Positions 28,324-51,504 of a stretch of 64,000 nucleotides of DNA are shown here, piece by piece. The first letter of the stretch is position 1. Each line of letters begins with the position of its first letter. A program made the translations under genes and the position numbers. The DNA is from Candidatus Thorarchaeota archaeon (lineage in GTDB: Archaea; Asgardarchaeota; Thorarchaeia; Thorarchaeales; Thorarchaeaceae): positions 1 to 64,000 of the forward strand of contig JBHIAE010000014.1 in assembly GCA_046758445.1 (NCBI GenBank). The letters are read 5' to 3'. The notes under the pieces were generated by a model. That model had not been told where the DNA came from and ran no database searches. It saw nothing but the letters and a program-made list of their open reading frames with translations.

Positions 28324-28420
28324 AACCTTTGTGGTGGGTTGATCGCATCTCCGAGTGCCGGAACAAGAGTGAGTCGTTGTGCACCGAAACTGATAACAAG
28401 AGTCTACAAAGGGAAAAGTC

Positions 28421-28477
28421 GCTCAACAATAACAGAAGGGCAGACCCCCAATCTCTCTATCACCGCCCCTTCTGCTT
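28421..28477 (+). repeat. Short-form (type B) repeat (copy 2)
   Basis: gctcaacaataacagaagggcagacccccaatctctctatcaccgcc matches the copies at 44449 and 50661. Confidence 0.8.
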
Positions 28478-28597
28478 CAGTCATCACTAATGATGTCTTC
28501 TCCATGATTGAACTGCTGCAGAGATTTCAGCATGAATGGAAAAGGATAGATTCATGATAAGGGCTCATGCTATATCTCAATTCACTGGTGAGTCGAT

Positions 28598-37300: not shown

Positions 37301-37353
37301 GCAGAGCTAACCGAACCATAATGCGATTCTAGTCTCCTCTTTGAGGCTAGAGT

Positions 37354-37493
37354 ATTCCCTGTCAAAGGCCCGCACCTCTTCCCACTCCGAAGAGCAGGAA
37401 CAAGCTGCTCTACCTCCAAGTAGTAGAATCCTAGGAGGTGATTGATGGATGATGAGGAAATCTCAACTTCTTCCATCCGCAGCTTCCGCTACG
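37354..37493 (+). repeat. Long-form repeat, 3' two-thirds only (copy 3)
   Basis: attccctgtcaaaggcccgcacctc...caagctgc...ctaggaggtgattgatgga...tcttccatccgcagcttccgctacg. Confidence 0.85.
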
Positions 37494-37585
37494 GATACCT
37501 CACAGTCCTGAGAGAGTCAACCTTTGGGAGACATCCTCTTTCCTTCATCTACAAAGGCCCTTGGTTTGACAATAGATTATATGAT

Positions 37586-38338
37586 TTACAGCCTTTTCTC
37601 AAGAGTCCTTCTGTGACCTATGAATGACACTATCACAAGAAGCAAGGTCCATCCAACAATTATTGCAAGATTGACAGAGGGATGAAGAAAGGAAACGCCT
37701 GCTACTGACGACCAGAAGAAATCTGCAACGTAAGTTAAAGGTGATAGGAATGTCACAATTCGGAATAATGCAGGCAAGACAGCCAGTGGAATGAAGATTC
37801 CGCTGATGAAGATGAGAGGAAACTTCACCATGGTTGCAATCATCATGATAGTGGAGGTCTGGTCCACAGGAGGCGCGGATATCAATTGACCAAAGAACGC
37901 AAAACAAATACTGCCTAGAACAATGCCTACGATTGTTAGTCCAACTTGAATGACGCTCATTTCCAGAAGTGCGATTGTGAGTACAAGTGGCACAGAACTC
38001 GAGATAAGACAGAATATCACAGATGCAACGCTATCTCCTAAGAGAATACACCAAAGGGGCACAGGCATGGAGATCAGCCTTTCCAGAGTATAGGCTCTAG
38101 TTTCAGTTGGAAAGATTACTGGTCCAACAGCTGTTGCTGAAAAAAAGACAACCATTGCAGTAAGACCAAGCATCAAGGTTGTTGGATTCATGTTCCTCCC
38201 CACAACGAAGGAGAGAAAGAAGAAGAAAGGAAAGAGAAGGCCAAAGATTAGTGTAGGTCCCTTTGCGTAATAGACTCTCATGTCTTTCTTAGCGATGGCA
38301 AGTATCTGACGGATTCGGAGCCTCGGAGCACTGGTCAT
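37586..38338 (-). CDS. ABC-2 type permease
   Basis: TLERL..P, FISGIFIP..LP, SPLTY. Confidence 0.9.
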   Translation of the reverse strand: MTSAPRLRIRQILAIAKKDMRVYYAKGPTLIFGLLFPFFFFLSFVVGRNMNPTTLMLGLTAMVVFFSATAVGPVIFPTETRAYTLERLISMPVPLWCILLGDSVASVIFCLISSSVPLVLTIALLEMSVIQVGLTIVGIVLGSICFAFFGQLISAPPVDQTSTIMMIATMVKFPLIFISGIFIPLAVLPALFRIVTFLSPLTYVADFFWSSVAGVSFLHPSVNLAIIVGWTLLLVIVSFIGHRRTLEKRL

Positions 38339-39270
38339 GAGGTTGTCCTCCTCGGTTGTATCAGTTCGAGGAAGACATCCTCAAGAGCAGCAGATTCCGT
38401 ACATGCAGAGAGGACTTTGATCCCTTGATGTTTGGCTAGTTCAACAAGAGCTGTCAACACACTTCCAGGATTGGATGAGTAGCATCGAATTATCGAGCCA
38501 CTGATATGGACTTCCTCAACACCGGATAATTCCTCTATCCTTTCACGAGGGATAGATTCTGAGAGATGCATGACAACGCTCTGGCGTTTCTCGAAAGTCC
38601 TCCGCAGGTTCGTCGGTGTGTCAATTGCGGCGATTCTTCCCTTGTTTATTACAGCTACTCGTGAACAGAGATCTTGGGCTTCTTGCATATTGTGAGTTGT
38701 CAGGATGATTGTCCGTCCCTCGGTGGCCATCTCAGATATGATTCCCCGAATCTCTCGTGAGCTCTCTGCATCAAGACCAGAAGTTGGTTCGTCAAGGAAT
38801 AGGACTTCCCCATCGGTCATAAGGGTCATAGCAAGACTCAGTCGCTGTCGCATTCCTTTCGAATAGGTCTTCGCCGCTCTATCTTTGGCCTCATAGATAT
38901 TCATCTTCTTGAGGAGTTGCGTGGATCTCTCCACCACGATGTCTTTTCTCAGACCATAAAGATCCCCAAACAAGTACATATTCTGTTGGCCTGTAAGATC
39001 TACATAGACATTCGCTGTTTCAGGAAGGACTCCAATGTTGTGTCGAATCTCACTAGCCTGTCTTGGCATCTCAAGGCCCAAAACTGAGATGGACCCTGAA
39101 GTGGGTGATATCACTCCAGTAAGCATGCGCACTGTTGTTGTCTTTCCCGCACCGTTTGGTCCTAAGAGACCGAATATCTCTCCACGTTGCATAGAGAAGC
39201 TGATTCCATCTACCGCTGAAATGTCATCATACCTCTTCACAAGGTCTTGAGCGGCAGCGACTAGAGTCAA
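38335..39270 (-). CDS. ABC transporter ATP-binding protein (DrrA-like)
   Basis: GPNGAGKTT, YSKGMRQR, LDEPTSGLD. Confidence 0.93.
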   Translation of the reverse strand: MTLVAAAQDLVKRYDDISAVDGISFSMQRGEIFGLLGPNGAGKTTTVRMLTGVISPTSGSISVLGLEMPRQASEIRHNIGVLPETANVYVDLTGQQNMYLFGDLYGLRKDIVVERSTQLLKKMNIYEAKDRAAKTYSKGMRQRLSLAMTLMTDGEVLFLDEPTSGLDAESSREIRGIISEMATEGRTIILTTHNMQEAQDLCSRVAVINKGRIAAIDTPTNLRRTFEKRQSVVMHLSESIPRERIEELSGVEEVHISGSIIRCYSSNPGSVLTALVELAKHQGIKVLSACTESAALEDVFLELIQPRRTTS

Positions 39271-39299
39271 TAGTAATCAACACTTGTCAGATGAGGGCG

Positions 39300-39446
39300 T
39301 TATTGAGTCCTAAGGCTCCTCAATTCGTCTTTGATACATTCTAATTTGTGAATAGTTTCTACCATGCAACTCTCAAGATGGGCTATCTGTTGTTCTCTAT
39401 TCATCTCTTTATGATGTTCGCCTCTTTCACATTTGCATTTTGTCAT
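39300..39446 (-). CDS. 48-aa Cys/His-rich coiled-coil peptide
   Basis: MTKCKCERGEHHKEMNREQQIAHLESC...; first gene of the ABC unit, divergent from HxlR. Confidence 0.5.
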   Translation of the reverse strand: MTKCKCERGEHHKEMNREQQIAHLESCMVETIHKLECIKDELRSLRTQ

Positions 39447-39531
39447 TGAGAATACATCCGATAGAGCAAGTTTTGATGAACCATATAACTTATCGCTCCA
39501 ACGGATGGAAGTAACTACCTGATGATGAAGA

Positions 39532-39923
39532 ATGAATAAGACAACGTATTCAAACCCACCATGCATCAGACCTCTTGAGAGTGTTGTGCGTCTACTTGGT
39601 CGTCACTGGACAATCCCTCTGATTCTGATGCTGGGAGAGCAAGGGAGCACTATTAGGTATTCTGAGATACGGGAGAAGTCATTGAGGATTCAAGTGATGT
39701 GATAAGTGACTCAACCCTTTCAAGAAAGTTGTCTGAACTTACCAACCTGGGAATTGTTAGTCGAAAGAGCTATGATGAGGTTCCCCCTAGAGTGGAGTAT
39801 GGTTTCACTGATGCGGGAATGACTCTGTTTAATACTCTTCATCAGATTGCGGCATGGACGAGAGAGCAGTGTCATAATGGTGTGCTTCGTATTCCAAAAA
39901 AGAAGGATATAGAGCATCTTTAG
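39532..39923 (+). pseudogene. HxlR-family regulator with a frameshift near 39678
   Basis: MNKTTYSNPPCIRPLESVVRLLGRHWT...RYSEIREK, then shifted frame ISDSTLSRKLSEL...EVPPRVEY. Confidence 0.75.
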
Positions 39924-40230
39924 GAATCTTAGACAAAGTTGGACATTATATATCTAAACAATGATTGACCTTGTAACATAGACTGTAGAATATGAGAATG
40001 ATCTCACTTTTTGATTTCTTTAAGAATACGTATGGGAGTCCCTTCTCTGTGCGATTTTTGGTCATTTCTTAATGAATATACCCCAAAAGCATAAGACTCA
40101 TCCTGATGACTTCTTCAATCATTCTGGTCGCATTTGCTGAGAAGCTGAATGCGGCAGCCATCGTAATTGGTGGAGCTATTGTTGGTGCAGTCTGCAAACT
40201 CTTGAAAAGTTGTAATCCATATGTGAATCT

Positions 40231-40644
40231 ATGCGAAGAGTACTGTTTCTCTGCACCGGGAATTCTGCAAGAAGTCAAATTGCAGAAGCGCTCCCTAAAC
40301 ACCTCGGTAAAAGAAACTTAGATGTACATAGTGCAGGAATCAAAGCTCAATCAGAGGTGAACCCGTTTGCCATAGAAGTGTTGAATGAGAGAGGAGTTCC
40401 AACAGAGAGCCTCTATCCAAAGCTTGTCAATGAATTCGTGAACCAAGAGTTCGACCTTGTTGTGACAGTGTGCGATGGAGCCAAACAGTCATGCCTGTTC
40501 TTTCCGGGAGCAAGACAGATGGAGCATTGGTTTCTTGAGGATCCTGCAGCCTTTCAAGGTGCATATGATGAGATTCTCCGTACCTTTAGAGAAACACGCA
40601 ATGAGATTGAGAAGAGAGTCAGAGAAAGATTTCTGAAGTCTTAG
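40231..40644 (+). CDS. arsC: Arsenate reductase (LMW-PTP fold, thioredoxin-type)
   Basis: CTGNSARSQ, VTVCD...C, EDP. Confidence 0.88.
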   Translation: MRRVLFLCTGNSARSQIAEALPKHLGKRNLDVHSAGIKAQSEVNPFAIEVLNERGVPTESLYPKLVNEFVNQEFDLVVTVCDGAKQSCLFFPGARQMEHWFLEDPAAFQGAYDEILRTFRETRNEIEKRVRERFLKS

Positions 40645-40710
40645 ATTGACATCTGCTTGTTAATCCTCCTATGAACCTCTCAGATAGAACAGATAGTCTA
40701 ATTGATATTG

Positions 40711-41484
40711 CTATATTCCTAATAACCAGCAAGTATCCGAGTATTTGGTATCAACTAGTAGCTGTGCAAGTTCGTTCTCACTCTCACTGATTGATCCCAA
40801 ACCCCAGCAGTTTTGTCCCAGCAATTTCGTGATTGATCCGACTAATCGTTTCACAATCTCCTGGGAGTGAAGCTCTTTTCCAAGCAGGAGTGATATGTTT
40901 GCTACAGGATCCGGGATACTTGGAACAGTCCCAAGACTATGTGCAAGCTCTGAATTTGGGTTTAGAACCCTGTGCATCATATCCAGGTCAGAGTCAATCA
41001 GTAGCGTACCATGGTGGAGAATGCCTTCATAAAGATAGTACTGAGCAGACCCCGAAACCTTCCAATCCTCAATGAAGACACTGGAGGGGGGCACAAACCT
41101 TGGTTTACAGCCTAATTGCGATAATAGATCGATAATGGCTGAACACAGGAAACGAGTGATATCGGGAATTGAATTCACTCCGATGATAGTTCTGGTATCT
41201 GCATTAATAGAGTAGTTGTAGTTTCCAAGGTCCATATACACAGTCCCTCCACCACTGCAACGTCTGATGATAGGGATGCCAAGTTCATTGCACAATTCTG
41301 TGTTTACTTCTGCTCTCACATCTTGACTACGGCCCATTATAACTGATTTAGAGTTTTGCCAAATACGAATGGTGTTTGGTGAACCGTGATCGATAACGCC
41401 TCTCAGTATTGCCTCATCGAGAGCGATGTTCCACTCTGGGTCAGTTTCCTTTGAGATCACAATACGCCACTTCGAGTCCATCAT
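40711..41484 (-). CDS. lplA: Lipoate-protein ligase A family catalytic domain
   Basis: N.ALDEA, RRCSGGGTVY.D, KVSGSAQ, HHGTLL. Confidence 0.85.
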   Translation of the reverse strand: MMDSKWRIVISKETDPEWNIALDEAILRGVIDHGSPNTIRIWQNSKSVIMGRSQDVRAEVNTELCNELGIPIIRRCSGGGTVYMDLGNYNYSINADTRTIIGVNSIPDITRFLCSAIIDLLSQLGCKPRFVPPSSVFIEDWKVSGSAQYYLYEGILHHGTLLIDSDLDMMHRVLNPNSELAHSLGTVPSIPDPVANISLLLGKELHSQEIVKRLVGSITKLLGQNCWGLGSISESENELAQLLVDTKYSDTCWLLGI

Positions 41485-41768
41485 TTCGAGATGCCACCAA
41501 ATGCCGCATCATATGCCTCCTCAACAATTCTACAGAGGTCATCATAAATGGGAACTATCCGTTCATGTGTTATTCTCCCTTCAACTACTATCGCTGGCAC
41601 AATGTTCTTCTTGGAGGCTTGGACTACTCCACCACTAGGACGTAGACCAGGAGGACCTCCCACTCTTTCTGTCCGAGTGTTACATCAGTTTTGCAACAGA
41701 GCCCTATTTACCTACCAATACCTAGTGTCGAATACGACGCCAGAATCAGCAAGGAGAAACCTTGCTTC

Positions 41769-42317
41769 CTATGTTCTCTTTGCTAGGACGCTCTCCAAAC
41801 AGTATACAGTCAGTCTTGGCTCATCACAAAGACGACCAAGTTCGCAGTCAGTGCATAGCCCCTCAAGGTTGTCCTTGCTCAAGTCCAAGTTTCCTTTCTC
41901 CTCGTGTAGTCGATGAAGAATCTTCAGATACTTCCCTTCTGCTATACGAGGGACCTCATTCCGTCTTTCAAGCTTGAACCATTCATACAGACCCCTGTTA
42001 CCTTTTGAACTGTTACAGCTTCTGCAGGCCATGACTATATTATCGGAAATGTCAGGCCCGCCTCTACTCACCGGTATCAGATGGTCATACGAAAGGTCCT
42101 CAGTTGATTCACAGTAGATACACTGGTTGGGCATCTCTCGTTCGCGAATGTACTCTTGAATGGAACCAGACCACTCAATCTCCCCAGCCTGAAGCTTCTT
42201 GAAGCGGTTCATTATGAAGGCAAACTGTTTCTTCCCGAATCCCGCCGAGGATGAGATGATCTTGGAGTACTGCCAGTAGATCAAGTTTCGTATCGTCTTG
42301 ACTGCTGCAGGCGGCAT
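41769..42317 (-). CDS. HNH endonuclease
   Basis: CIYC...DHLIPVSRGG....NIVMACRSCNSSKG. Confidence 0.9.
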   Translation of the reverse strand: MPPAAVKTIRNLIYWQYSKIISSSAGFGKKQFAFIMNRFKKLQAGEIEWSGSIQEYIREREMPNQCIYCESTEDLSYDHLIPVSRGGPDISDNIVMACRSCNSSKGNRGLYEWFKLERRNEVPRIAEGKYLKILHRLHEEKGNLDLSKDNLEGLCTDCELGRLCDEPRLTVYCLESVLAKRT

Positions 42318-42424
42318 CGCAGACTATCTCCCTTCTTTGGGGTTCTTGACTCTGGAATCTTATCAAGATTGGGGAGTTGCAGACCTTTGAGCTTATCACT
42401 AATCAACTGACAAAGTGAGAATGC

Positions 42425-42527
42425 AAAATGACAGGGCGCTCAACAGTATGCGTCAGGGCAAGTGCCAACCTGGCGTTGGGCAACCTGACCGATTGAATCG
42501 CATTCCCTGGTGTTAGCCTTCACCTCT
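42425..42527 (+). repeat. Long-form repeat, 5' part (copy 4)
   Basis: aaaatgacagggcgctcaacagt...cagggcaagtgccaacctggcgttgggcaacctgaccgattg. Confidence 0.88.
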
Positions 42528-42755
42528 TATTATCAGCATCTCGAAAGATGGCTCATTCTAATTCAGAGATGACTCTTGAATACAAGGCAAATACCTGATG
42601 AAATATCAGGTATCCAGCAGCTACTGAAATCTTGGAAAAGGTTAGACAAGATTTTCATATTCAGGGTAAGAATGTGATATTTCATCCATGAATCGCATAT
42701 TTCATCCATATCTTTATATCATATTGACTATACATAATGTAAGGTGCTCATCTTG

Positions 42756-42995
42756 ATGGTACGAGTTCGAATGGATGGCCAACGGCGCATCAGAATTCCA
42801 AGGAAGGCTGGAGTGGAAGGAAACACATTCTTTCTCCTCGCTCTTGGATCATATCACATCCTCTTTCCTGTGCCGTCTGAAAAGCCAGAACTGGATATTG
42901 AGGGGCCCATTGCAGAGCTTCTTGCTCAAGCAGAGGTGGAGATTATTAGAGATGTGTCTGAGAGATGGAAGAGGAAAGACCAAGATGCTGATTGA
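42756..42995 (+). CDS. AbrB/SpoVT-like antitoxin (TA pair 1)
   Basis: VRMDGQRRIRIP; overlaps the downstream PIN gene. Confidence 0.75.
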   Translation: MVRVRMDGQRRIRIPRKAGVEGNTFFLLALGSYHILFPVPSEKPELDIEGPIAELLAQAEVEIIRDVSERWKRKDQDAD

Positions 42996-43401
42996 GAATG
43001 ACATGGTTCTGGCATTCTATAAGAAAGATGACCACCTACAACCCCATGCGAATCGTCTGTTCTCAAGGATTGAGCAGGGCGATTTCGGTACGGTCGTCAT
43101 TCCCAGTGTCTTCTCGATTGAGCTCTACTACGTTTTAAGATCCCTCACTGGTGTGACTCCAGTTCGAGATGTCATAAGCCATCTCATTACATTCCCCAAT
43201 CTCTCAGTAGTACCCTCCACCATTGATCATCAGTTGGCAGCGTTGTTCCTTCTGGACAACTACAAATTAGGATCTATCTTTGATGCAGTCTATGCCGCAG
43301 TTTCACTCAGTGATGACAATCCGGACCACACAATCATCTCTACAGACCATATCTATGATAGAATTGAAGGCTTGACAAGACTCGACCCTACCAGAATCTA
43401 G
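42985..43401 (+). CDS. vapC: PIN-domain VapC-type toxin (TA pair 1)
   Basis: MLIENDMV..D.L, IELYY, IFDAVYAA, ISTDHIYDRI. Confidence 0.85.
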   Translation: MLIENDMVLAFYKKDDHLQPHANRLFSRIEQGDFGTVVIPSVFSIELYYVLRSLTGVTPVRDVISHLITFPNLSVVPSTIDHQLAALFLLDNYKLGSIFDAVYAAVSLSDDNPDHTIISTDHIYDRIEGLTRLDPTRI

Positions 43402-43445
43402 TATATTGCATACAGAACGGGCTGGTCACGAGAAAGGACAGATGC

Positions 43446-43669
43446 AAAAGAGAGAGGGTGCTCAACAGTGCGAGCCCGGGCAAGTGCCAACTTGGCGTTG
43501 GGCAACCTGACGATTGCACCGCATTCCCCGTCAAAGGCCCGTACCTCTATTGCAGTCCCAAAAGGACTGCAACCAAGCTGCTTCTACCCCTAAGGATAGA
43601 AAACTTAGGAGGTGATTGATGGAAGACGAGAGTGACTCTCACCCTCTTCCATCCGCAGCTTCTGCTGCG
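43446..43669 (+). repeat. Full-length structured repeat (copy 5)
   Basis: Closely similar to 47838-48058 and 45974-46197; multiple hairpins. Confidence 0.92.
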
Positions 43670-43702
43670 TTTTTTGATTGATATTCGTGTCTATTGTCCG
43701 CC

Positions 43703-44107
43703 TTAATAATCAATCACGATTAGCTCTGCCACAGAATCGAAGTGGGAATCACGAGTTACCAGAGGGAAGTTGTGATGTTTTGCTGTTGCAGCGATAATCA
43801 CATCTGCATACGGAATTATCTTTCCTTGTCGATAAAGATCACCATCAATACGTGCAGCCTCCCGTGCAATCTCGGAGGTATAATCGAGTTGATCGAAATG
43901 TGCAAGATCAATCAGAGCTTTACTCAGCTTTGACTTCAGTGTCTTTTTCTCCAAATGATAATAGAATATTCCCCGAAGATACTCATGAACAGTGACCACA
44001 GAGATTGCCTTGATATCAGAGCCGCTATCGACCTGTTTGGCCTTGGCTACCGCGCCAGGGTCCCCATTTGTAAGGTCAACGAGATACCCAGTGTCAAAGA
44101 GCGGCAT
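43703..44107 (-). CDS. vapC: VapC PIN-domain toxin (TA pair 2)
   Basis: LFDTGYLVD, VTVHEY, DVIIAATA, LVTRD.HF. Confidence 0.92.
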   Translation of the reverse strand: MPLFDTGYLVDLTNGDPGAVAKAKQVDSGSDIKAISVVTVHEYLRGIFYYHLEKKTLKSKLSKALIDLAHFDQLDYTSEIAREAARIDGDLYRQGKIIPYADVIIAATAKHHNFPLVTRDSHFDSVAELIVIDY

Positions 44108-44111
44108 GTTT

Positions 44112-44357
44112 TCACCCCTCATTTTGCTGAGAAACCAGAGATAGAGCTCTCTCCTTGTCACGTGCAGCCTGTTCCTTTTTCAGCTCCTTTAGTTTCATCC
44201 ATTCTTCAGAGCTCATGGTTGCAGTCCCTGCAAGATCAGATATCACACCTCTAGTCTTGATGAGCCTTCGTAGGAGCTCACTGAAGCTCTCACCCCTTCT
44301 CTTTAGACGTTTGAGTTCATTATAGACGTCATCTGCTACTGCTATGTTCTTGGCCAT
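44112..44357 (-). CDS. vapB: Archaeal VapB-type antitoxin (DUF217-like) (TA pair 2)
   Basis: KNIAVADDVYNELKRLKRRGESFSELLRRL. Confidence 0.88.
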   Translation of the reverse strand: MAKNIAVADDVYNELKRLKRRGESFSELLRRLIKTRGVISDLAGTATMSSEEWMKLKELKKEQAARDKERALSLVSQQNEG

Positions 44358-44368
44358 CTGAATCAGCC

Positions 44369-44386
44369 ATACATATGCATATGAAT
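44369..44386. promoter_or_regulatory. Palindromic operator candidate of the vapBC promoter
   Basis: atacatatgcatatgaat (perfect core CATATGCATATG) between the start codon and a TTTATATA box on the minus strand. Confidence 0.55.
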
Positions 44387-44443
44387 ATATAAACTCCATC
44401 ATGAATATGATTCGCTGTAATCAGACGAATAGCCCAATGGAGG

Positions 44444-44508
44444 ATGAGAGGGTGCTCAACAGTGACAGAAGGGCAGATCCCCAATCTCTCTATCACCGCC
44501 GCCTCTAC
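44444..44508 (+). repeat. Short-form (type B) repeat (copy 6)
   Basis: 44449-44508 is identical over 60 bp to 50661-50720. Confidence 0.92.
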
Positions 44509-44537
44509 TTCTCTCTACCCTGGGAAACCAAGAGAAT

Positions 44538-44819
44538 CTAGCCCAGCCAATCATATCCCTTGCTTCGATGGATAATCTCTGTGACTCTAACTTCTTTGTC
44601 AACTACGAAATAGATTGCCCTATAGTCACCAATTCTCATGCGAAACAGAGGAGGTTCCGACGGATATCTAAGCTTCTTGATGTCAGCACCGGATCGACTT
44701 CGAAATGGGTCTTGCTCTAAGCTCAAAAGGGCCTCCTTGACTCGCTTCTTCTGAGCCGGTTTCAAGAGTTCCAGTTGGGAAACTGCAGTTTCTGATAGCA
44801 GGACCCTATGTTTCGTCAA
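44538..44819 (-). CDS. relE: RelE/ParE-family toxin (TA pair 3)
   Basis: DIKKL...FRMRIGDYRAIY...I.HRSKGY. Confidence 0.9.
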   Translation of the reverse strand: MTKHRVLLSETAVSQLELLKPAQKKRVKEALLSLEQDPFRSRSGADIKKLRYPSEPPLFRMRIGDYRAIYFVVDKEVRVTEIIHRSKGYDWLG

Positions 44820-45003
44820 GAGAGATGAACTCCTCTTCAGCTAGGATACGCTTCTGCCTCTCTCCGAACTCCACCTCTTCTGCAATAGTGAGAAGGCGCC
44901 TGACTAGTTCATCATAGGTTTCCCCCTTTCTCCCGAAACGTTTCAAGAGATCTCTCGTTTCTTTAGAAAGTGGAATTGTCGTTGTTTCGCCCATATCTAT
45001 CAT
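44806..45003 (-). CDS. RHH-type antitoxin (TA pair 3)
   Basis: TTIPLSKETRDLLK..G.KGETYDELVRRL...FISLDE; overlaps relE. Confidence 0.85.
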   Translation of the reverse strand: MIDMGETTTIPLSKETRDLLKRFGRKGETYDELVRRLLTIAEEVEFGERQKRILAEEEFISLDET

Positions 45004-45082
45004 ATCTTATAATGTTGATAGTTACTTATAACTTTCACGGTAATGAGAACCAAGAGCCTTTGGTCGTTGCCTGAACATGCGG

Positions 45083-45167
45083 AATGAAAGGGTGCTCAAC
45101 AGTGCCAGCCAGGGCAAGTGCCAACCTGGCGTTGGGCAACCTGACGATTGACCGCGTTCCCCGTCAA
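45083..45167 (+). repeat. Long-form repeat, 5' part (copy 7)
   Basis: aatgaaagggtgctcaacagtgccagccagggcaagtgccaacctggcgttgggcaacctgacgattg...ccccgtcaa. Confidence 0.9.
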
Positions 45168-45174
45168 CAGAATA

Positions 45175-45591
45175 TCATACTAAGGTCACGAGTCCACCAA
45201 AATCTGAATCGAAGGTTGCTAAGTATGTCACATTATTGCCATCGATGTAAGCAAGGATACAACAGTCAGTAAATCTTAGGGGTCTCTCAGGCCATTTCGC
45301 AAATTGCCTCCATTTATCCCATGCAAGATCTAGAGTTCTAGGTGTTATGTATTCAAACCTTATGAATTCGGGAGTATTGCGAATCAGATCATACGCCTTA
45401 CGCACTATGTTCTTCTTTTTCGTGTGCATCCACAAGGTTGTTAGTACTTCATCCAAGACATAGTCAACTGTCAGTCTCATTCCATATTTCGGGTCCTTGA
45501 GCTCAGTGAGAAGTTCTTTCGCTTTGGAATGGTTATTGTCGCGAGTGTTCAGCAACGCAATGATGACATTACTGTCGATAAGCACCGTCAT
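45175..45591 (-). CDS. vapC: VapC PIN-domain toxin (TA pair 4)
   Basis: VLIDSNVIIA...D..H, VLDEV, FTDC, ATFDSDF. Confidence 0.92.
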   Translation of the reverse strand: MTVLIDSNVIIALLNTRDNNHSKAKELLTELKDPKYGMRLTVDYVLDEVLTTLWMHTKKKNIVRKAYDLIRNTPEFIRFEYITPRTLDLAWDKWRQFAKWPERPLRFTDCCILAYIDGNNVTYLATFDSDFGGLVTLV

Positions 45592-45881
45592 GCAGAGTCC
45601 CCGCCGTATACAACCTCATCCACTTTAGACGAGAGGTCCTCACTTCCCTGTCCCAAGTCCTCAGCTAGGGAGAGGATCTTCTTTATAGTGTCATCGTCGA
45701 GAGGGAGCTCCTTTAATCGCACCTCCTTCACTATGAGGTCATAGTTCTCAAGTCCAATCCTGAACACAATCTCCAGTATCTCCTTCTTAGTCAGACGTTT
45801 TCGTGTGTCTAGATACAGACGCGCCTGCAACTCCTCAAGGTCATCCTTAAGGTCAAACTTGACGGTGGACACTGGTAACAC
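45588..45881 (-). CDS. Putative antitoxin (TA pair 4)
   Basis: STVK...LEELQARL...DLSSKVDEVVYG; ATGA overlap with vapC. Confidence 0.8.
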   Translation of the reverse strand: MLPVSTVKFDLKDDLEELQARLYLDTRKRLTKKEILEIVFRIGLENYDLIVKEVRLKELPLDDDTIKKILSLAEDLGQGSEDLSSKVDEVVYGGDSA

Positions 45882-45973
45882 CCAGTAACTCAGTAACCAT
45901 CAACTCATATAAACTTGTAGAATATTCATGGCTCATCTAAATCTCAGATCTGGTGCTGGCTCTGAGTATGAAG

Positions 45974-46197
45974 AATGAGAAGGGTGCTCAGCAGCGTGGG
46001 TCAGAGCAAGGCCAACTTGGCGTTGGGCAACCTGACGGCTGCACAGCGTTCCCCGCCGTCGAAGGCCCGTACCTCCCTTGTATCCCCGAGCGGACGCAAA
46101 GCAAGCTGCTTCTACCTCTAAGAGATAGATATCCTAGGAAGTGATTGATGGAAGACGAGATGACTCTCATCCTCTTCCATCCGCAGCTTCCGCTGTG
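45974..46197 (+). repeat. Full-length structured repeat (copy 8)
   Basis: Same block order as copy 5, with compensatory stem changes. Confidence 0.92.
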
Positions 46198-46291
46198 GTG
46201 ATCAATCAGAGTATTCAGCATACCTTCAATGATTTTATATATGATTCAGGTCCATATTATCTTGTCAGGTATATTACGTTTTATCAGGTGA

Positions 46292-46552
46292 ATGCCAATG
46301 AGTCTGATTATAGAGGGACAAATCGGAAAGAAGCACACGATATACCTTCCAAAGGCTGTTGTTGATGAGGCAAGTCTCGAGGAGGGAATGAGGATCCAAA
46401 TCACTGTAGAGGGTAATAGAATCATCATTGAGCCTATTCCAGACCCTATCGCTCTTGCAATACACGGAAAGAAGTTTGCAGAAATGACACTAGAAGATAT
46501 CGAGGTCATCAGTAGTGAAGAACAGGCAAGGCACACAGAAGATTCTTCTTGA
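46292..46552 (+). CDS. AbrB/MazE/SpoVT-family antitoxin (TA pair 5)
   Basis: IGKKHTIYLPKAV....LEEG..I...VEGNRIIIEP. Confidence 0.88.
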   Translation: MPMSLIIEGQIGKKHTIYLPKAVVDEASLEEGMRIQITVEGNRIIIEPIPDPIALAIHGKKFAEMTLEDIEVISSEEQARHTEDSS

Positions 46553-46967
46553 TACTTCATTTCTTCTACCTACCCTCGGAATAGAGGTAGAAAGGGAGGT
46601 AGTACAGACAATCTCAAGGATTGATCAAGAACAGACTCAGCTGTTCTACTCAGAGTGGAGTTTCCTTGAGAGCAGTTGGGTGGCAATACGACTGCTAAGA
46701 CAGAAGAAGTTTGAAGAGCCAGTCTATCGAAGAGGACTTCTGAGTATAACCAAGACCCATGTCTACGACACTATCACGATGGACCCACACGATTACCTGA
46801 CTGCACTTACGTTTTTCCAGAAAGGGCACTCAGATATGATTGACAATCTATTGTATGCAGCCGCTCTCAGGGAGGGGTGCAAATTCCTCACCATTGATGA
46901 GGAGTTCTCACGCTTCATTTCCAAGAACGATCTTGAGAATGCTATTTTGACTCCCAAGGACATCTAA
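46515..46967 (+). CDS. vapC: VapC PIN-domain toxin (TA pair 5)
   Basis: ILLDTSFLLP, SFLES, HSDMIDNLLYAAA, FLTID. Confidence 0.9.
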   Translation: MKNRQGTQKILLDTSFLLPTLGIEVEREVVQTISRIDQEQTQLFYSEWSFLESSWVAIRLLRQKKFEEPVYRRGLLSITKTHVYDTITMDPHDYLTALTFFQKGHSDMIDNLLYAAALREGCKFLTIDEEFSRFISKNDLENAILTPKDI

Positions 46968-47012
46968 ACAACTGAAGTATATTCTCACACCTGGGAAGAC
47001 TGGTATTCATTA

Positions 47013-47164
47013 AAAATGAAAGGGTGCCCAACAATGTGAGCAGGGCAAGTGCCAACTTGGCGTTGGGCAATCCGACCGATTGCACCGCGCTCCCCATCCT
47101 AAGCCTGCACCTCTCTCTGCCCGAAGGCAGAGCAAGCTGTCTTCATCACTTGAGATGGTGGAAA
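47013..47164 (+). repeat. Long-form repeat, 3'-truncated and diverged (copy 9)
   Basis: aaatgaaagggtgcccaacaatgtgagcagggcaagtgccaacttggcgttgggcaa...ctctgcc-cgaa-ggcagag-caagctg. Confidence 0.88.
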
Positions 47165-47194
47165 GTATGATAGTCTGAATCGGTTTTCGAGCTT

Positions 47195-47470
47195 TCACAA
47201 AAGACTCAAGAATTCCTCTTTGGATAGTCCACTCTGCTTGATGATAGAGAGGAGAGTTCCTCTTGGAATTGGATTTCTATGGGGAATGATTACAAGATGA
47301 GGTCGACCATTTGCATCGTAGATGACAAGAGCCGTGTGACTTCCTTTCCCTTTCACGGGAGCATACTGGAAACCAGCCTTGAGTAGCTTCCGAGTGAGTT
47401 TCTTACTACCAATCAGAGGTAGTCGGTCCACAATGCTCGACCTCTCGACAAGACTAGAGAGTCTAGACAT
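47195..47470 (-). CDS. hicA: HicA toxin (TA pair 6)
   Basis: L.KAGF....KGSH...VIIPH..IPRGTL.SIIKQSG. Confidence 0.9.
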   Translation of the reverse strand: MSRLSSLVERSSIVDRLPLIGSKKLTRKLLKAGFQYAPVKGKGSHTALVIYDANGRPHLVIIPHRNPIPRGTLLSIIKQSGLSKEEFLSLL

Positions 47471-47699
47471 TGATCTCGATTGTGCGGGTAGATTTCTCAG
47501 GGGTGGTTATGATAGGGAGATAATCGTCAATAATCCCAAGTTCACGTGCATTAACAAGCCATAGTTCTATCGCCTCTGTGAGGTTAGAGAGAGCCTCTTC
47601 AAAGGTGTCACCTGCTGAAGCCACATCAATCTCAGGGCTTTTTGAAACATATGTTCCATCTTCTTCCCAAATTACGGCAGTGAATCTTACTTTCATCAT
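47463..47699 (-). CDS. hicB: HicB antitoxin (TA pair 6)
   Basis: EEDGTYVS..PE....GDTFEEAL.NL.EAIELWL. Confidence 0.9.
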   Translation of the reverse strand: MMKVRFTAVIWEEDGTYVSKSPEIDVASAGDTFEEALSNLTEAIELWLVNARELGIIDDYLPIITTPEKSTRTIEINV

Positions 47700-47837
47700 T
47701 GACTACAACCATCCAGAGTTCTTGAATTAAACTATTTCATTGATGAGATCATAACGCTAAACTCTCAAGTATTAACCATGAGGACCCAATATTAACCAAT
47801 ATGGTAGGCAGATCCACTCATTCATGGATTGTTCTGC

Positions 47838-48058
47838 AAAATGAGAGGGTGCTCAACAATGTGAGCAGGGCAAGTGCCAACTTGGCGTTGGGCAACCTGA
47901 CCGATTGCACCGCATTCCCCGTCAAAGGCCTGTACCTCTATTGCAGTCCCGAAGAACTGCGATACAAGCTGCTTCTACCCCTAAGGATAGAAAACTTAGG
48001 AGGTGATTGATGGAAGACGAGGAAACCTCATCCTCTTCCATCCGCAGCTTCCACTACG
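47838..48058 (+). repeat. Full-length structured repeat (copy 10), overlapping the copA 3' end
   Basis: Closely similar to copy 5; its last about 30 nt encode the end of CopA on the minus strand. Confidence 0.92.
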
Positions 48059-50280
48059 AACACCTTGTCTTTCTCAGTTCTGACGTAAGAGTTTGCCAAG
48101 ACAGCTGAAACACTTCCGGCCATCGCGATCATTGCCCACACTGGATGGAGCAATCCAGTCATGGCTAGAGGTACACCAATTCCATTGAACACAAACGCAA
48201 GTAGCACATTCTGCAACGTCTTCGAGTAACTAGACCTGCAGACATTATATGCATCAATCACACCCCTTAAGCGATCACTCACAATCACAATGTCAGCAGA
48301 CTCAATCGCGATGTCACTTCCGGCACCAATTGCAATTCCAATGTCCGACTGCATCAATGCGGGAGCGTCATTTATGCCATCTCCAACCATAGCAACTCTC
48401 TGGTCCTGGGCCTGAATCTTTCTAATCATGGCTGATTTCTCTTGAGGTAGGACTCCTGCATGGACCTCTGAAATACTCAATTCCTCTGCTATTGCACTAG
48501 CAGTGAGCTTATTGTCTCCCGTAACCAAGACCGGCTCAATACCTTCTGCCTTTAATTCTAGAACCACATCCTTTGCATCCTCTTTGAGCAGGTCTCCAAT
48601 TGCTATCATTCCAGCCAATATTCCGTTGACACTTACAGCTACCACGGTCAGACCTTCCCTCTGCATTTGCTCTAGTTTCTTGGGGAACTCGCCCTCTCTC
48701 GCTCCATCCTCCTTTAGAAACTCTGGACTGCCTACGAGTATGATTGCATCCCTCACGCGGCCACGAACACCCTTTCCTAGGTGAGCGCGAAAATCATCGA
48801 CAGTTTCTATTTGTACAACATCTTGCAGAGCCCGTTCTATCACCGCACGAGCCAATGGATGCTCGGAATTGATCTCTAAACTGGCTGCGAATGAGAGGAC
48901 TTCTGAATTACTGAAGCCATTAATGGCCACAATGTCAATGACGCTGGGTCTTCCCATCGTGAGTGTACCAGTCTTGTCGAAAACAACCCTTCGAACATCC
49001 TTGAATGTCTGAAAGGCCTCTCCTGACCGAATTAGCACTCCTCTTTGCGCGGCGATTCCACTCCCTCGAATCAAAGCCAGAGGCGTCGCCATCCCTATAG
49101 CGCATGGATAACCCATCACTAGAACAGCTAGTGCTGCAAAGACTCCTACTTCGAGATTTGACTCACCAAGGAGCAACCATGCACCAAAGATCCAAAACGC
49201 AAATGCGACAATTGCAGCCAGCAGCACCCCTCGAACGAAGTACTTCAGTATACGATCCACTAGCATGACAATATCAGGCTTTAGAGCCCTTGCTTCTCTG
49301 ATGTGTGCTGCAATCTGCTGAAGAAATGATTCTTCCCCCACTCTTGTCACTTCAATAATGAGGAATCCTCTCTGGTTAAGAGAGCCCCCGATGACCTCAT
49401 CCCCTCTTTCTTTTGGGACAGGAATCGGTTCACCTGTGACAAGGCTTTCATCTACGGCTGAAGCGCCTCTTCTTACGATTCCATCAACAGGGATGCTCTC
49501 ACCCGGTAACACCTTGACTAGATCACCCTGTTTCACATTCTCAACAGGAATCTCGGTTTCACTCTCGCCAGGTCCGATGAGCCTTGCGGTTGCAGGTTGG
49601 AGGTCCATGAGCTTCTTGATTGCCTGAGATGAACGAGTACGAACAAGAAGAGATACATAGCCAGAGAGGACATGATATGAGGTCACAAATACAGACACTG
49701 CAAAGAAGTCCATAACAGGCCATGGTTGAATAATGATGCCAATGATGCCCCCTAGAATCCCGCCAAAGGCAGCAAACTCTAAGAGCACATGCTGGTTTAG
49801 TATCCCTCTTCGAAGAGATGCTCCTGCCAATCGTTTTATGTGCAGCCCTGGACCAAACATTGTCAGGACTGCCAGAGAGAACATAATACTGAATCCAAAT
49901 GGAATAGAATAACCAGTCCACATCAGTAACATCATGGTGGCTGCTAATAGTGTCAGAATACCAGCAGCAATCAGCCACTTCTTTTCTAGAATAAGCTCTT
50001 CCTCATCTTCTTCAAGGCTGCGTACCTTGTCAGGGTCACGGATGGTGAACCCAATGCTTCGCAGAGTATCCTTGATGGCCGTGGGTGTCTGGTGCCCGGG
50101 ATCATACTCTATAAGTGCCTCCTCATGACTCAAACTCACGGCTACATCACAGACTCCCTCCATTCTCGAAAGTGCCTGTCTTACACTTTCTGTGCAGAAC
50201 GAACACTGAAGCCCCCCAATCTTGACCAACAACTTGTCGCGAACAAGTTGTGCATTGGACTCTTCTACCAATATCACCAT
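48028..50280 (-). CDS. copA: Heavy-metal P1B-type ATPase (CopA-like)
   Basis: N-terminal GLQCSFC, TGEP, GYPCAIG, DKTGT, SEHP, TGDN, GDGINDAP. Confidence 0.88.
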   Translation of the reverse strand: MVILVEESNAQLVRDKLLVKIGGLQCSFCTESVRQALSRMEGVCDVAVSLSHEEALIEYDPGHQTPTAIKDTLRSIGFTIRDPDKVRSLEEDEEELILEKKWLIAAGILTLLAATMMLLMWTGYSIPFGFSIMFSLAVLTMFGPGLHIKRLAGASLRRGILNQHVLLEFAAFGGILGGIIGIIIQPWPVMDFFAVSVFVTSYHVLSGYVSLLVRTRSSQAIKKLMDLQPATARLIGPGESETEIPVENVKQGDLVKVLPGESIPVDGIVRRGASAVDESLVTGEPIPVPKERGDEVIGGSLNQRGFLIIEVTRVGEESFLQQIAAHIREARALKPDIVMLVDRILKYFVRGVLLAAIVAFAFWIFGAWLLLGESNLEVGVFAALAVLVMGYPCAIGMATPLALIRGSGIAAQRGVLIRSGEAFQTFKDVRRVVFDKTGTLTMGRPSVIDIVAINGFSNSEVLSFAASLEINSEHPLARAVIERALQDVVQIETVDDFRAHLGKGVRGRVRDAIILVGSPEFLKEDGAREGEFPKKLEQMQREGLTVVAVSVNGILAGMIAIGDLLKEDAKDVVLELKAEGIEPVLVTGDNKLTASAIAEELSISEVHAGVLPQEKSAMIRKIQAQDQRVAMVGDGINDAPALMQSDIGIAIGAGSDIAIESADIVIVSDRLRGVIDAYNVCRSSYSKTLQNVLLAFVFNGIGVPLAMTGLLHPVWAMIAMAGSVSAVLANSYVRTEKDKVFVVEAADGRG

Positions 50281-50304
50281 TCCGCCTCTGTTCTTCCCGA
50301 TTCC

Positions 50305-50541
50305 TCAGCCCGAAGAAACAGGTGACGCAGGAAATCCAATCTTCTTTAGCACCTCTATGATTCTTTCAAGAACAATCTGATCTGAATCATAACTCACAAC
50401 TACTTCCTGAGTTGACTGACTTGTTTCTACAGCTAAGACTCCGGAGAGGATGTTCAATACATTCTTGATTCTCTTCTCGCAACTTGTACAATGAATTGCA
50501 TTTTGCTGAACAATGAGCTTGGTTCGGTGGATGTCTGTCAT
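50305..50541 (-). CDS. copZ: HMA-domain metal chaperone (CopZ-like)
   Basis: IHCTSCEKRI...L..V; start taken at MTDI (50541). Confidence 0.8.
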   Translation of the reverse strand: MTDIHRTKLIVQQNAIHCTSCEKRIKNVLNILSGVLAVETSQSTQEVVVSYDSDQIVLERIIEVLKKIGFPASPVSSG

Positions 50542-50653
50542 TGCATGAGCGTTTCCTAATATGTAATACCTAATCTCAAGGCAGATATATCCAACAAATA
50601 TCATTCATCGAAAAAAGAGCTATGGAAATCGGCATTGGGAATCAATTCAATAG

Positions 50654-50720
50654 AAATGAAAGGGTGCTCAACAGTGACAGAAGGGCAGATCCCCAATCTC
50701 TCTATCACCGCCGCCTCTAC
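50654..50720 (+). repeat. Short-form (type B) repeat (copy 11)
   Basis: 60-bp identity with 44449-44508. Confidence 0.92.
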
Positions 50721-50808
50721 GTTCCTCCTATTCAGGAGAAATCAGTCCATCCTCCTATTCACATAGTCAGTAAAGCACTTCAACATACTCGACGTAGAGC
50801 TATGTGGT

Positions 50809-51363
50809 GTGTTGAGTATGAGGAGATTGCACGCGCCTGCGAAGATTTCTATACCGTTGGCATTGATGTTGGTAGGACTCGTTTTGATTGCTTCGTGTGC
50901 ATTCCCTGTTGTAAGCATTGAAGAGGTCATCAATGTGTCATTCACATTGAGTCCAGGCTTTGAGTATGGTCCAGGTGAGAATGGAACCACCTATCATACC
51001 AGAGTTCACGGATACTCATCTGTCTTGAGGGGGGAGATTACGATTGACGGAGGGGGAGTCTACTTCAATGCGAACGGATACAACACACAGGATTTCAAAA
51101 ATGTCTATGTGGAGGACCAATATGCGTTCACGGTCGACCCTGCTGATGATCTCTATTGGTTTGTGTTCAACAATACCTCTGGCGGAAGTGAGAGTGACAT
51201 AGCGTTCAGACTGGAAGAGGTTTGGACCGCGCCCTTGGCTTTCAGTTCGTTCCCAATGATTATCCTAGCGGTGACATCACTGTTCTTGTTCCTCATTGGG
51301 CTTCTGGGCATGGTAATCACACGAGTACGAAGAGTCAGAACCGGGAACTCTGATGTGTTCTAG
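50809..51363 (+). CDS. Membrane protein with a small beta-sandwich between two TM helices
   Basis: N- and C-terminal TM helices; AFTV....YWFVFNN pattern. Confidence 0.6.
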   Translation: MLSMRRLHAPAKISIPLALMLVGLVLIASCAFPVVSIEEVINVSFTLSPGFEYGPGENGTTYHTRVHGYSSVLRGEITIDGGGVYFNANGYNTQDFKNVYVEDQYAFTVDPADDLYWFVFNNTSGGSESDIAFRLEEVWTAPLAFSSFPMIILAVTSLFLFLIGLLGMVITRVRRVRTGNSDVF

Positions 51364-51504
51364 GTATTGTCCTGTAGAAGCCTAGAATGCATATTGCACC
51401 AATCCTGTGCAGGAATACCGAATTGGTAAGCAATTCACACAGTGGGGTCTTTTGTAACTCCGTGTCTACCTCCGTCACCGCATGATGAACTTCTTGGAAT
51501 CTCT

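Follow-up and report, generated by a model that had tools for sequence, protein, structure and literature searches.

The direct repeats on contig JBHIAE010000014.1 of a Candidatus Thorarchaeota archaeon are opposite-strand copies of the last ~55–70 bases of 16S rRNA together with its ~170-base 3′ trailer. In the explanation that we prefer, to which we assign a probability of about 0.6, they are the recombination sites of a cassette array linked to the 16S gene, through a mechanism that we infer. Each repeat is a DNA copy that starts near helix 45, passes through the anti-Shine-Dalgarno (anti-SD) sequence and the ~170-nt trailer, and stops at a U-rich end past the core of the processing stem, and such copies form the boundaries of gene cassettes in an array of ~45 kb. 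The fold itself is known biology, the 3′ end of pre-rRNA and its processing stem, and as an ordinary pre-rRNA structure it does not merit an entry of its own among RNA families. The striking part is the setting: across an Asgard family, accessory cassettes (toxin–antitoxin systems, mercury and copper resistance, and nucleases) are attached to the single 16S gene, with copies of its tail interspersed. The arrangement suggests a way, open to testing, by which genes may move within the archaeal group that is closest to eukaryotes. No direct description of a 16S-linked cassette array in archaea was found in the literature searched.

Identity of the repeat

The window, meaning the whole stretch of 64,000 nt that was analyzed, covers positions 1 to 64,000 of the contig. 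The repeat family is concentrated at ~37–51 kb (Table 1), where the initial annotation had placed a ~225-nt repeat. That repeat is real, with three full copies of ~230–260 nt, four partial copies, and a second type. Its core word, GGKYGCTCARCA, occurs 12 times in the window compared with 2.1 expected from shuffles. The right end of the repeat as read on the plus strand (cttAGGAGGTGATtgatgga...ccgcagcttccgctacggatacct) is the reverse complement of the 3′ end of 16S rRNA, and matches to a pattern derived from the repeat were confined to assemblies of Thorarchaeota (Asgard archaea). In several of these assemblies the repeat is followed without a break by ...GGATACCTTGTTACGACTT..., the universal 16S 1492R site in reverse complement. 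Furthermore, in relatives and on a second contig of this genome (C2) the same element leads straight into the 16S gene, and the true trailers of ~20 relatives can be aligned with the array copies.

Read on the minus strand, the full copies contain helix 45 (CGUAGC-GGAA-GCUGCG), an extra hairpin of ~31 nt, the anti-SD tail AUCACCUCCU (present in all of them), and ~170 nt of trailer. Most copies and the true genes have the GGAA loop in helix 45, the loop in the copy at 43446 being AGAA. The extra hairpin is found in the true 16S rRNA of this genome and several related ones and is missing from others. The ‘perfect SD plus ATG’ visible on the plus strand arises because the complement of the 16S anti-SD tail lies there. 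Only one copy is continuous with a 16S body: this is the original trailer at C2:123798-124027, immediately 3′ of the single 16S gene of the genome (C2:122207-123794, a match of 1191 bits to the SSU model), and the copies in the window end near helix 45.

No Rfam family reached its gathering score anywhere in the window. A relaxed scan of the minus strand of the copy at 47838 aligned it to positions 1735-1831 of the 1831 positions in the SSU model (15 bits, E 0.046, against a gathering score of 50). The initial annotation had described the repeat as a novel ncRNA or ssDNA fold and recognized no known RNA family in it. The second statement holds at the level of gathering scores and fails in that the element is the pre-16S 3′ end; the first is overturned by the continuity of the element with the 16S gene in relatives and on C2.

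The type 2 copies (28411, 44435, and 50652) have only their first ~30–45 nt in common with the main type. The shorter trailer form that they match in its distal part is the true 16S trailer of a congener, G011. An origin of the type 2 repeat in the flank of the 23S rRNA gene was also considered and rejected: there is no similarity, and the 23S gene is unlinked, on contig C53.

Table 1. Repeat copies, intervening cassettes, and the parts of one full copy. Positions refer to the window unless a contig is named (C14 is the contig of the window).
Feature	Position	Strand	Basis or remark
Full copy	43436..43698	-	nhmmer 287 bits; alignment to true 16S ends; order on minus strand: 16S helix 45, extra hairpin, anti-SD, 3′ trailer
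Full copy	45959..46225	-	
Full copy	47827..48087	-	CopA stop codon within its 16S-like end
Terminal copy, 16S end and proximal trailer alone	37352..37508	-	
Partial copy, distal ~110 nt	42416..42529	-	
Partial copy, distal ~95 nt	45074..45167	-	
Partial copy, distal ~145 nt	47007..47150	-	
Type 2 copy	44435..44515	-	Matches distal part of short-form trailer
Type 2 copy	50652..50727	-	
Diverged type 2 copy, beyond dense array	28411..28482	-	
Cassettes between copies	37586..50604		Pfam scans
Helix 45 copy	43654..43669	-	CGCAGC-AGAA-GCUGCG; true genes CGUAGC-GGAA-GCUGCG
Extra hairpin between helix 45 and anti-SD	43618..43653	-	GAUGGAAGA...UCUUCCAUC
Complement of 16S anti-SD tail	43606..43616	-	AUCACCUCCUA
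Helix of anti-SD and flank with trailer	43584..43612	-	CCUCCUAAG/CUUAGGGG
Variable trailer hairpin	43550..43572	-	Most compensatory changes of all parts
Trailer blocks whose counterparts in the true copy pair with the 16S 5′ leader	43526..43547	-	GAGGUAC GGGC...CGGGG
Distal core and U-rich tail	43444..43470	-	CACUGUUGAGCACCC; 3′ strand of outer pre-16S processing helix
Overlap of contig ends	C14:67958-68012 and C2:138018-138072		

Fold, folded strand, and processing stem

The copy at 43446 folds better than shuffled sequences on both strands (z = −4.3 on the plus strand and −4.4 on the other). In a set of 24 copies from several genomes, made up of true trailers and array copies, 91.6% of the cells in the consensus helices are standard pairs compared with 37–64% when the partner columns are slid, and the covariation score exceeded that of 500/500 shuffles. 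RNAalifold applied to these 24 copies found 28 pairs in the sense orientation, 8 of them (about 6–8) changed on both sides, and 18 pairs in the antisense orientation, 2 of them changed in this way. An alignment that mixed long and short trailers gave almost no RNAalifold consensus because MAFFT misaligns the variable middle, and the long-form subset was used instead. For its 13 copies, the consensus energy was −98.8 kcal/mol in the sense orientation compared with −86.4 kcal/mol in the antisense, and the sense structure contained 105 G.U cells compared with 16 A.C cells. These values identify the strand that folds as the 16S sense strand, the minus strand of the window.

These measurements bear on several details that had been read from the letters alone. 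The pairing rate, the shuffles, and the two-sided changes confirm that the stems stay paired while their sequence changes. The consensus recovered the hairpin gatggaaga...tcttccatc with its variable tip, ttgcagtcc...ggactgcaa and its variants, the hairpin cctaag...cttagg, and the outer stem aagctgc/gcagctt. A further proposed stem (gcccaac/gttgggc in one copy) does exist as an intramolecular pairing that competes with the helix between leader and trailer, and the covariation is carried by the latter. G-T pairs had been taken as a mark of a folded plus strand, and the counts of G.U and A.C cells point the other way. Variants of the helix between anti-SD and trailer also covary (UAAG/CUUA, UAUG/CAUA, and UACG/CGUA).

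In the 16S 5′ leader, 112–154 nt upstream of the gene, UGCUCAACAGUG is the pairing partner of the distal core, CACUGUUGAGCA. In this genome the pairing of leader and trailer comprises five blocks with ~47 bp, including a 12-bp core helix, and the trailer hairpins lie between the blocks. Compensatory variants of leader and core occur in other genomes, as CAGCAG/CUGCUG, GCAGAUG/CAUCUGC, CUCGACAGGG/UUUUGUCGAG, and GGCUCAAC/GUUGAGCC (in G018, L061, L043/L045, and the group that has GGCUCAAC/GUUGAGCC). Because of this pairing and its covariation, the core common to nearly all copies is identified as the 3′ strand of the pre-16S processing stem. The co-fold of leader and trailer from this genome contained no clear bulge-helix-bulge motif. 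The 3′ end of archaeal pre-16S rRNA with its processing stem, which is cut by the splicing endonuclease, resembles the repeat in its helix 45, its anti-SD, and a trailer that covaries with the leader; the difference is that the segment is present here in ~16 copies, just one of them attached to a 16S gene.

The three full copies in the window retain 58–63 of the 64 consensus pairs, on a par with true trailers, which suggests either that they are young or that selection acts on the copies themselves. On the best reading, the covariation arose in the working rRNA genes of different Thorarchaeota lineages and was inherited by the copies.

The array beside the 16S gene

Inside a type 2 repeat, 55 nt at the end of C14, the contig of the window, are shared with the reverse complement of the end of C2. 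The assembly therefore broke at the repeat, and the array belongs to the same locus as the 16S gene. The array extends for ~45 kb from the 16S gene on, with ~16 full or partial copies that are all in the orientation of that gene, and a BLAST search of the 3.25-Mb assembly found no copies elsewhere, all strong matches falling in this one locus. The distal core is kept in 15 of 16 copies, the terminal copy at 37352 being the sole exception, and many copies have no 16S-like end.

The cassettes overall contain accessory genes that include VapBC, HicAB, RelE/ParE, CopZA, merAB, HNH, and TnpB. The dense part in the window encodes an ABC transporter, an LMW phosphatase, a lipoate ligase, an HNH protein, four VapBC-type pairs, a RelE/ParE pair, HicAB, and CopZ-CopA. 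About three-quarters of the open reading frames in the array are oriented with the 16S gene, and plus-strand cassettes are also present between copies. The gene for the CopA P-type ATPase runs into the repeat at 47827-48087, so that its last codons and stop (48028-48087) fall within the 16S-like end. Other products of the array include a TnpB-like protein of 588 aa with a Cas12f1-like TNB domain (L036:15675-17441, plus strand), a ClpP-like SDH protease, and a 1717-aa protein with no domain match (L036:10388-15541, minus strand); the TnpB and protease cassettes recur in the array of G018 at 71–78% nucleotide identity. Between two copies, at 50700-65000, lie 14 kb that contain no repeat and carry genes for metabolism and regulation that look ordinary and occur on both strands (an ECF S-component, a ThrC-PadR fusion, DJ-1/PfpI, Rce1-like proteases, a radical SAM protein, a racemase, and GNAT). 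This segment is a ‘cassette’ of very large size or else chromosomal DNA that was captured.

Similar arrangements are widespread in the family. Same-strand clusters of the trailer core were found in most of its 81 genomes, compared with 0–4 matches per strand for a reversed-pattern control, and include 10 copies in 12 kb in G085, eight in G095, and six each in G094 and G064. In all seven examined arrays that share a contig with the 16S gene (those of G085, G095, G018, G063, G073, G011, and this genome), the array begins immediately after the gene and has the same orientation. An assembly break at the repeat adjoining the 16S gene was seen in this genome and in G024. Such breaks could, we infer, help to explain the missing 16S genes in other assemblies of the group. 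Related cassettes occur in other genomes in a different order and at 70–85% nucleotide identity. The HNH cassette is present in 7 of the 81 genomes and lies in or next to a core cluster in four genera, including this genome (the others represented by G073, G074, and G055). The HNH endonuclease had been a candidate for the enzyme of the array, and its presence in just these seven genomes marks it as a cassette instead.

Signs of turnover are also seen in comparison with the close relative G007. In G007, a giant-protein gene and repeat abut the 16S gene; in this genome, the 16S gene is separated from the unit of giant gene and repeat by 5.3 kb that encode MerB, MerA, and an ArsR-type regulator. 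The displaced repeat copy is a mosaic, with ~95–97% identity to G007 limited to its first ~50 nt and flank. The CopA unit is 97.5% identical to G007 from the exact distal end of its repeat, and its neighbors differ. In these two close comparisons the breakpoints are at the core or within ~60 nt of it. The merB, merA, and ArsR-type regulator genes form one block next to the 16S gene here, and in G015 MerB alone stands between two trailer cores with ~30 nt of the merA 3′ end retained (L081:16739-17674), so that the junction there is imprecise.

Across arrays, the copies have a sharp common distal boundary (gcaaaatgaaaGGGTGCTCA on the plus strand) and a variable reach toward the 16S end, and most of those in G015 are only ~45–80 nt long. 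The array copies shown for each genome mostly carry the trailer variant of that genome. Mosaic repeats and own-genome trailer variants point to exchange between copies. Counting against the preferred explanation, the 16S-adjacent trailer of this genome is 81–83% identical to its array copies.

Two further observations concern contig structure. A contig of 7433 nt in G007 (C335, L086) starts with a homologue of 50882-51437 and ends with a homologue of 47833-50577; the cassettes may be reordered between the two genomes, or the contig may be a circular permutation (from an excised circle or a cycle in the assembly). Logan contigs from four runs break at the repeats with even depth (~27–37), and the joints listed are cross-mapping of other copies.

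Possible mechanisms and competing explanations

Under the preferred explanation, cassettes would enter, leave, and be shuffled through recombination between copies. Homologous recombination or gene conversion is the most likely route, with the conserved trailer and 16S end supplying the homology. It fits the mosaics, the sameness of copies within a genome, and the imprecise junctions. Alternatively, a site-specific enzyme may act at the distal core. The sharp distal boundary and the near-universal core of ~45 nt look more like a defined site than like random homologous exchange; together with the breakpoints close to the core, they leave such an enzyme a modest probability. For cassettes oriented with the 16S gene, the copy would also provide a structured, U-terminated 3′ end. 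That homologous recombination drives the exchange, and that the copies serve as terminators, are both proposals.

Compatible with this explanation, and tentative in its own right, is the possibility that the copies are retained for an RNA role that serves the cassettes. They could be terminators or stabilizing 3′ UTRs, partners of the leader that cause read-through transcripts to be cut by the pre-rRNA machinery, or mimics of the 16S end that buffer ribonuclease toxins. Consistent with such roles, the full copies in the window pair as well as true trailers, copies begin 8–55 nt past the stop codons of toxin genes, most open reading frames share the orientation of the 16S gene, and the core with its U-rich tail is the part that is always kept. 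Many copies, however, are cut to only ~45–100 nt and are too short to form most of the helices, and plus-strand cassettes are found between copies as well.

A rather doubtful alternative is that the repeats are attachment-site duplications, produced by site-specific integration at the 16S 3′ end by a recombinase encoded elsewhere, or of unknown type, that cuts at the distal core. Genomic islands at the 3′ ends of tRNA and tmRNA genes, and tandem SCC elements at rlmH in staphylococci, are well-known systems of this kind. As in those systems, the direct repeats here duplicate the end of a conserved gene, in this case the 3′ end of an RNA gene, and have built up in tandem beside the intact gene; the sharp distal boundary, the core kept in 15 of 16 copies, and the breakpoints near the core in the G007 comparisons would also suit an attachment site. 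The target differs, being the 16S end and trailer, as do the length of the repeats (to ~250 nt) and the cassettes, which are of ~1 kb and contain no recombinase. A closer precedent in location comes from Heimdallarchaeum, where, according to an excerpt of the report (Wu et al. 2022, PMC8813620), the mobile elements HeimM2 and HeimV2 are inserted exactly between the single 16S gene and a tRNA-Arg gene. That excerpt describes Asgard mobile DNA immediately downstream of a sole 16S gene, but as single elements of 8 and 44 kb, and it reports no array of 16S-tail repeats.

The searches for a recombinase weigh against integration at an attachment site. Pfam scans of the larger open reading frames of the array found no integrase or recombinase. 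In the genome as a whole, no serine recombinase or resolvase was found, and the only two tyrosine recombinases are on contigs other than those of the array. Among five array-bearing relatives, no tyrosine recombinase was linked to the array, and three had no match at all. Moreover, the proximal ends of the copies vary, and the ~30 nt of merA beside the MerB cassette of G015 make an imprecise junction.

A more speculative and still less probable proposal is that Thorarchaeota have an integron-like platform built from the 16S unit that operates without an integron integrase. If so, signals for expression and for recombination (or RNA processing) would come from the strong rRNA promoter and the processing-stem core, cassettes would be captured beside the 16S gene by a novel enzyme or by RNA-guided or processing-linked chemistry at the core, and each trailer copy could pair with the 16S leader.

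A true integron-type array, in which the hairpin GCTCAAC...GTTGGGC would be an attC site in a cluster that has no integrase, is very improbable. Integron cassette arrays and integrase-less attC clusters have been reported also in Archaea, Asgard genomes among them (Ghaly et al. 2022, PMC9668308). The array resembles them in its small, toxin–antitoxin-rich cassettes at ~1-kb spacing, separated each by one structured repeat, in one orientation and at one locus, and both boxes of the long form in this genome match the consensus (GCTCAAC to RYYYAAC and GTTGGGC to GTTRRRY). However, the repeat is the tail of an rRNA gene, its anchor is the 16S gene and not attI, and no match to the integron integrase model (TIGR02249) was found in this genome, which is 92.7% complete. 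Neither the type 2 copies here nor the array copies shown for G015 and G009 have the GTTRRRY box, and the aligned trailers of several relatives lack it or carry a changed form. The hairpin, at 44 nt, is short and lopsided compared with attC sites of 57–141 nt with symmetric L boxes, conservation continues for ~170 nt beyond the supposed crossover, and published Asgard attCs differ from the repeat in sequence and shape. On these grounds the integron hypothesis was rejected. The array thus differs from integrons, from islands at RNA genes, and from the Heimdallarchaeum elements in its repeat, in its anchor, and in having no detected recombinase.

Equally improbable is a stand-alone structured ncRNA or ssDNA element on the plus strand: although that strand folds well and no Rfam family reached its threshold, the repeat is the same kind of sequence as the 16S 3′ end with its trailer, its core covaries with the 16S leader, and the counts of G.U and A.C cells favor the minus strand. 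Retro-copying of the pre-16S 3′ end by reverse transcription would give copies a common transcript-distal end and a variable 5′ truncation, as is seen, but it is highly unlikely given that no reverse transcriptase was found in the genome, that homologous cassettes show short copies to arise by deletion, and that cassettes occur in both orientations.

Two small hairpin insertions are present near the 3′ end of the 16S gene itself (L033:3040-3150, on C2 of this genome). The first, of ~30 nt, is within the universal GTCGTAAC/AAGGTA linker, and the second, of ~31 nt, is in the interval between helix 45 and the anti-SD, where its removal would restore the canonical GGAUCACCUCC. Both are variably present among genomes of one genus, and G011 has neither. 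This variable presence hints that the 3′ end of the 16S gene is itself exchanged between lineages. The linker that contains the first insertion is the 1492R primer site, and the insertion may bias amplicon surveys.
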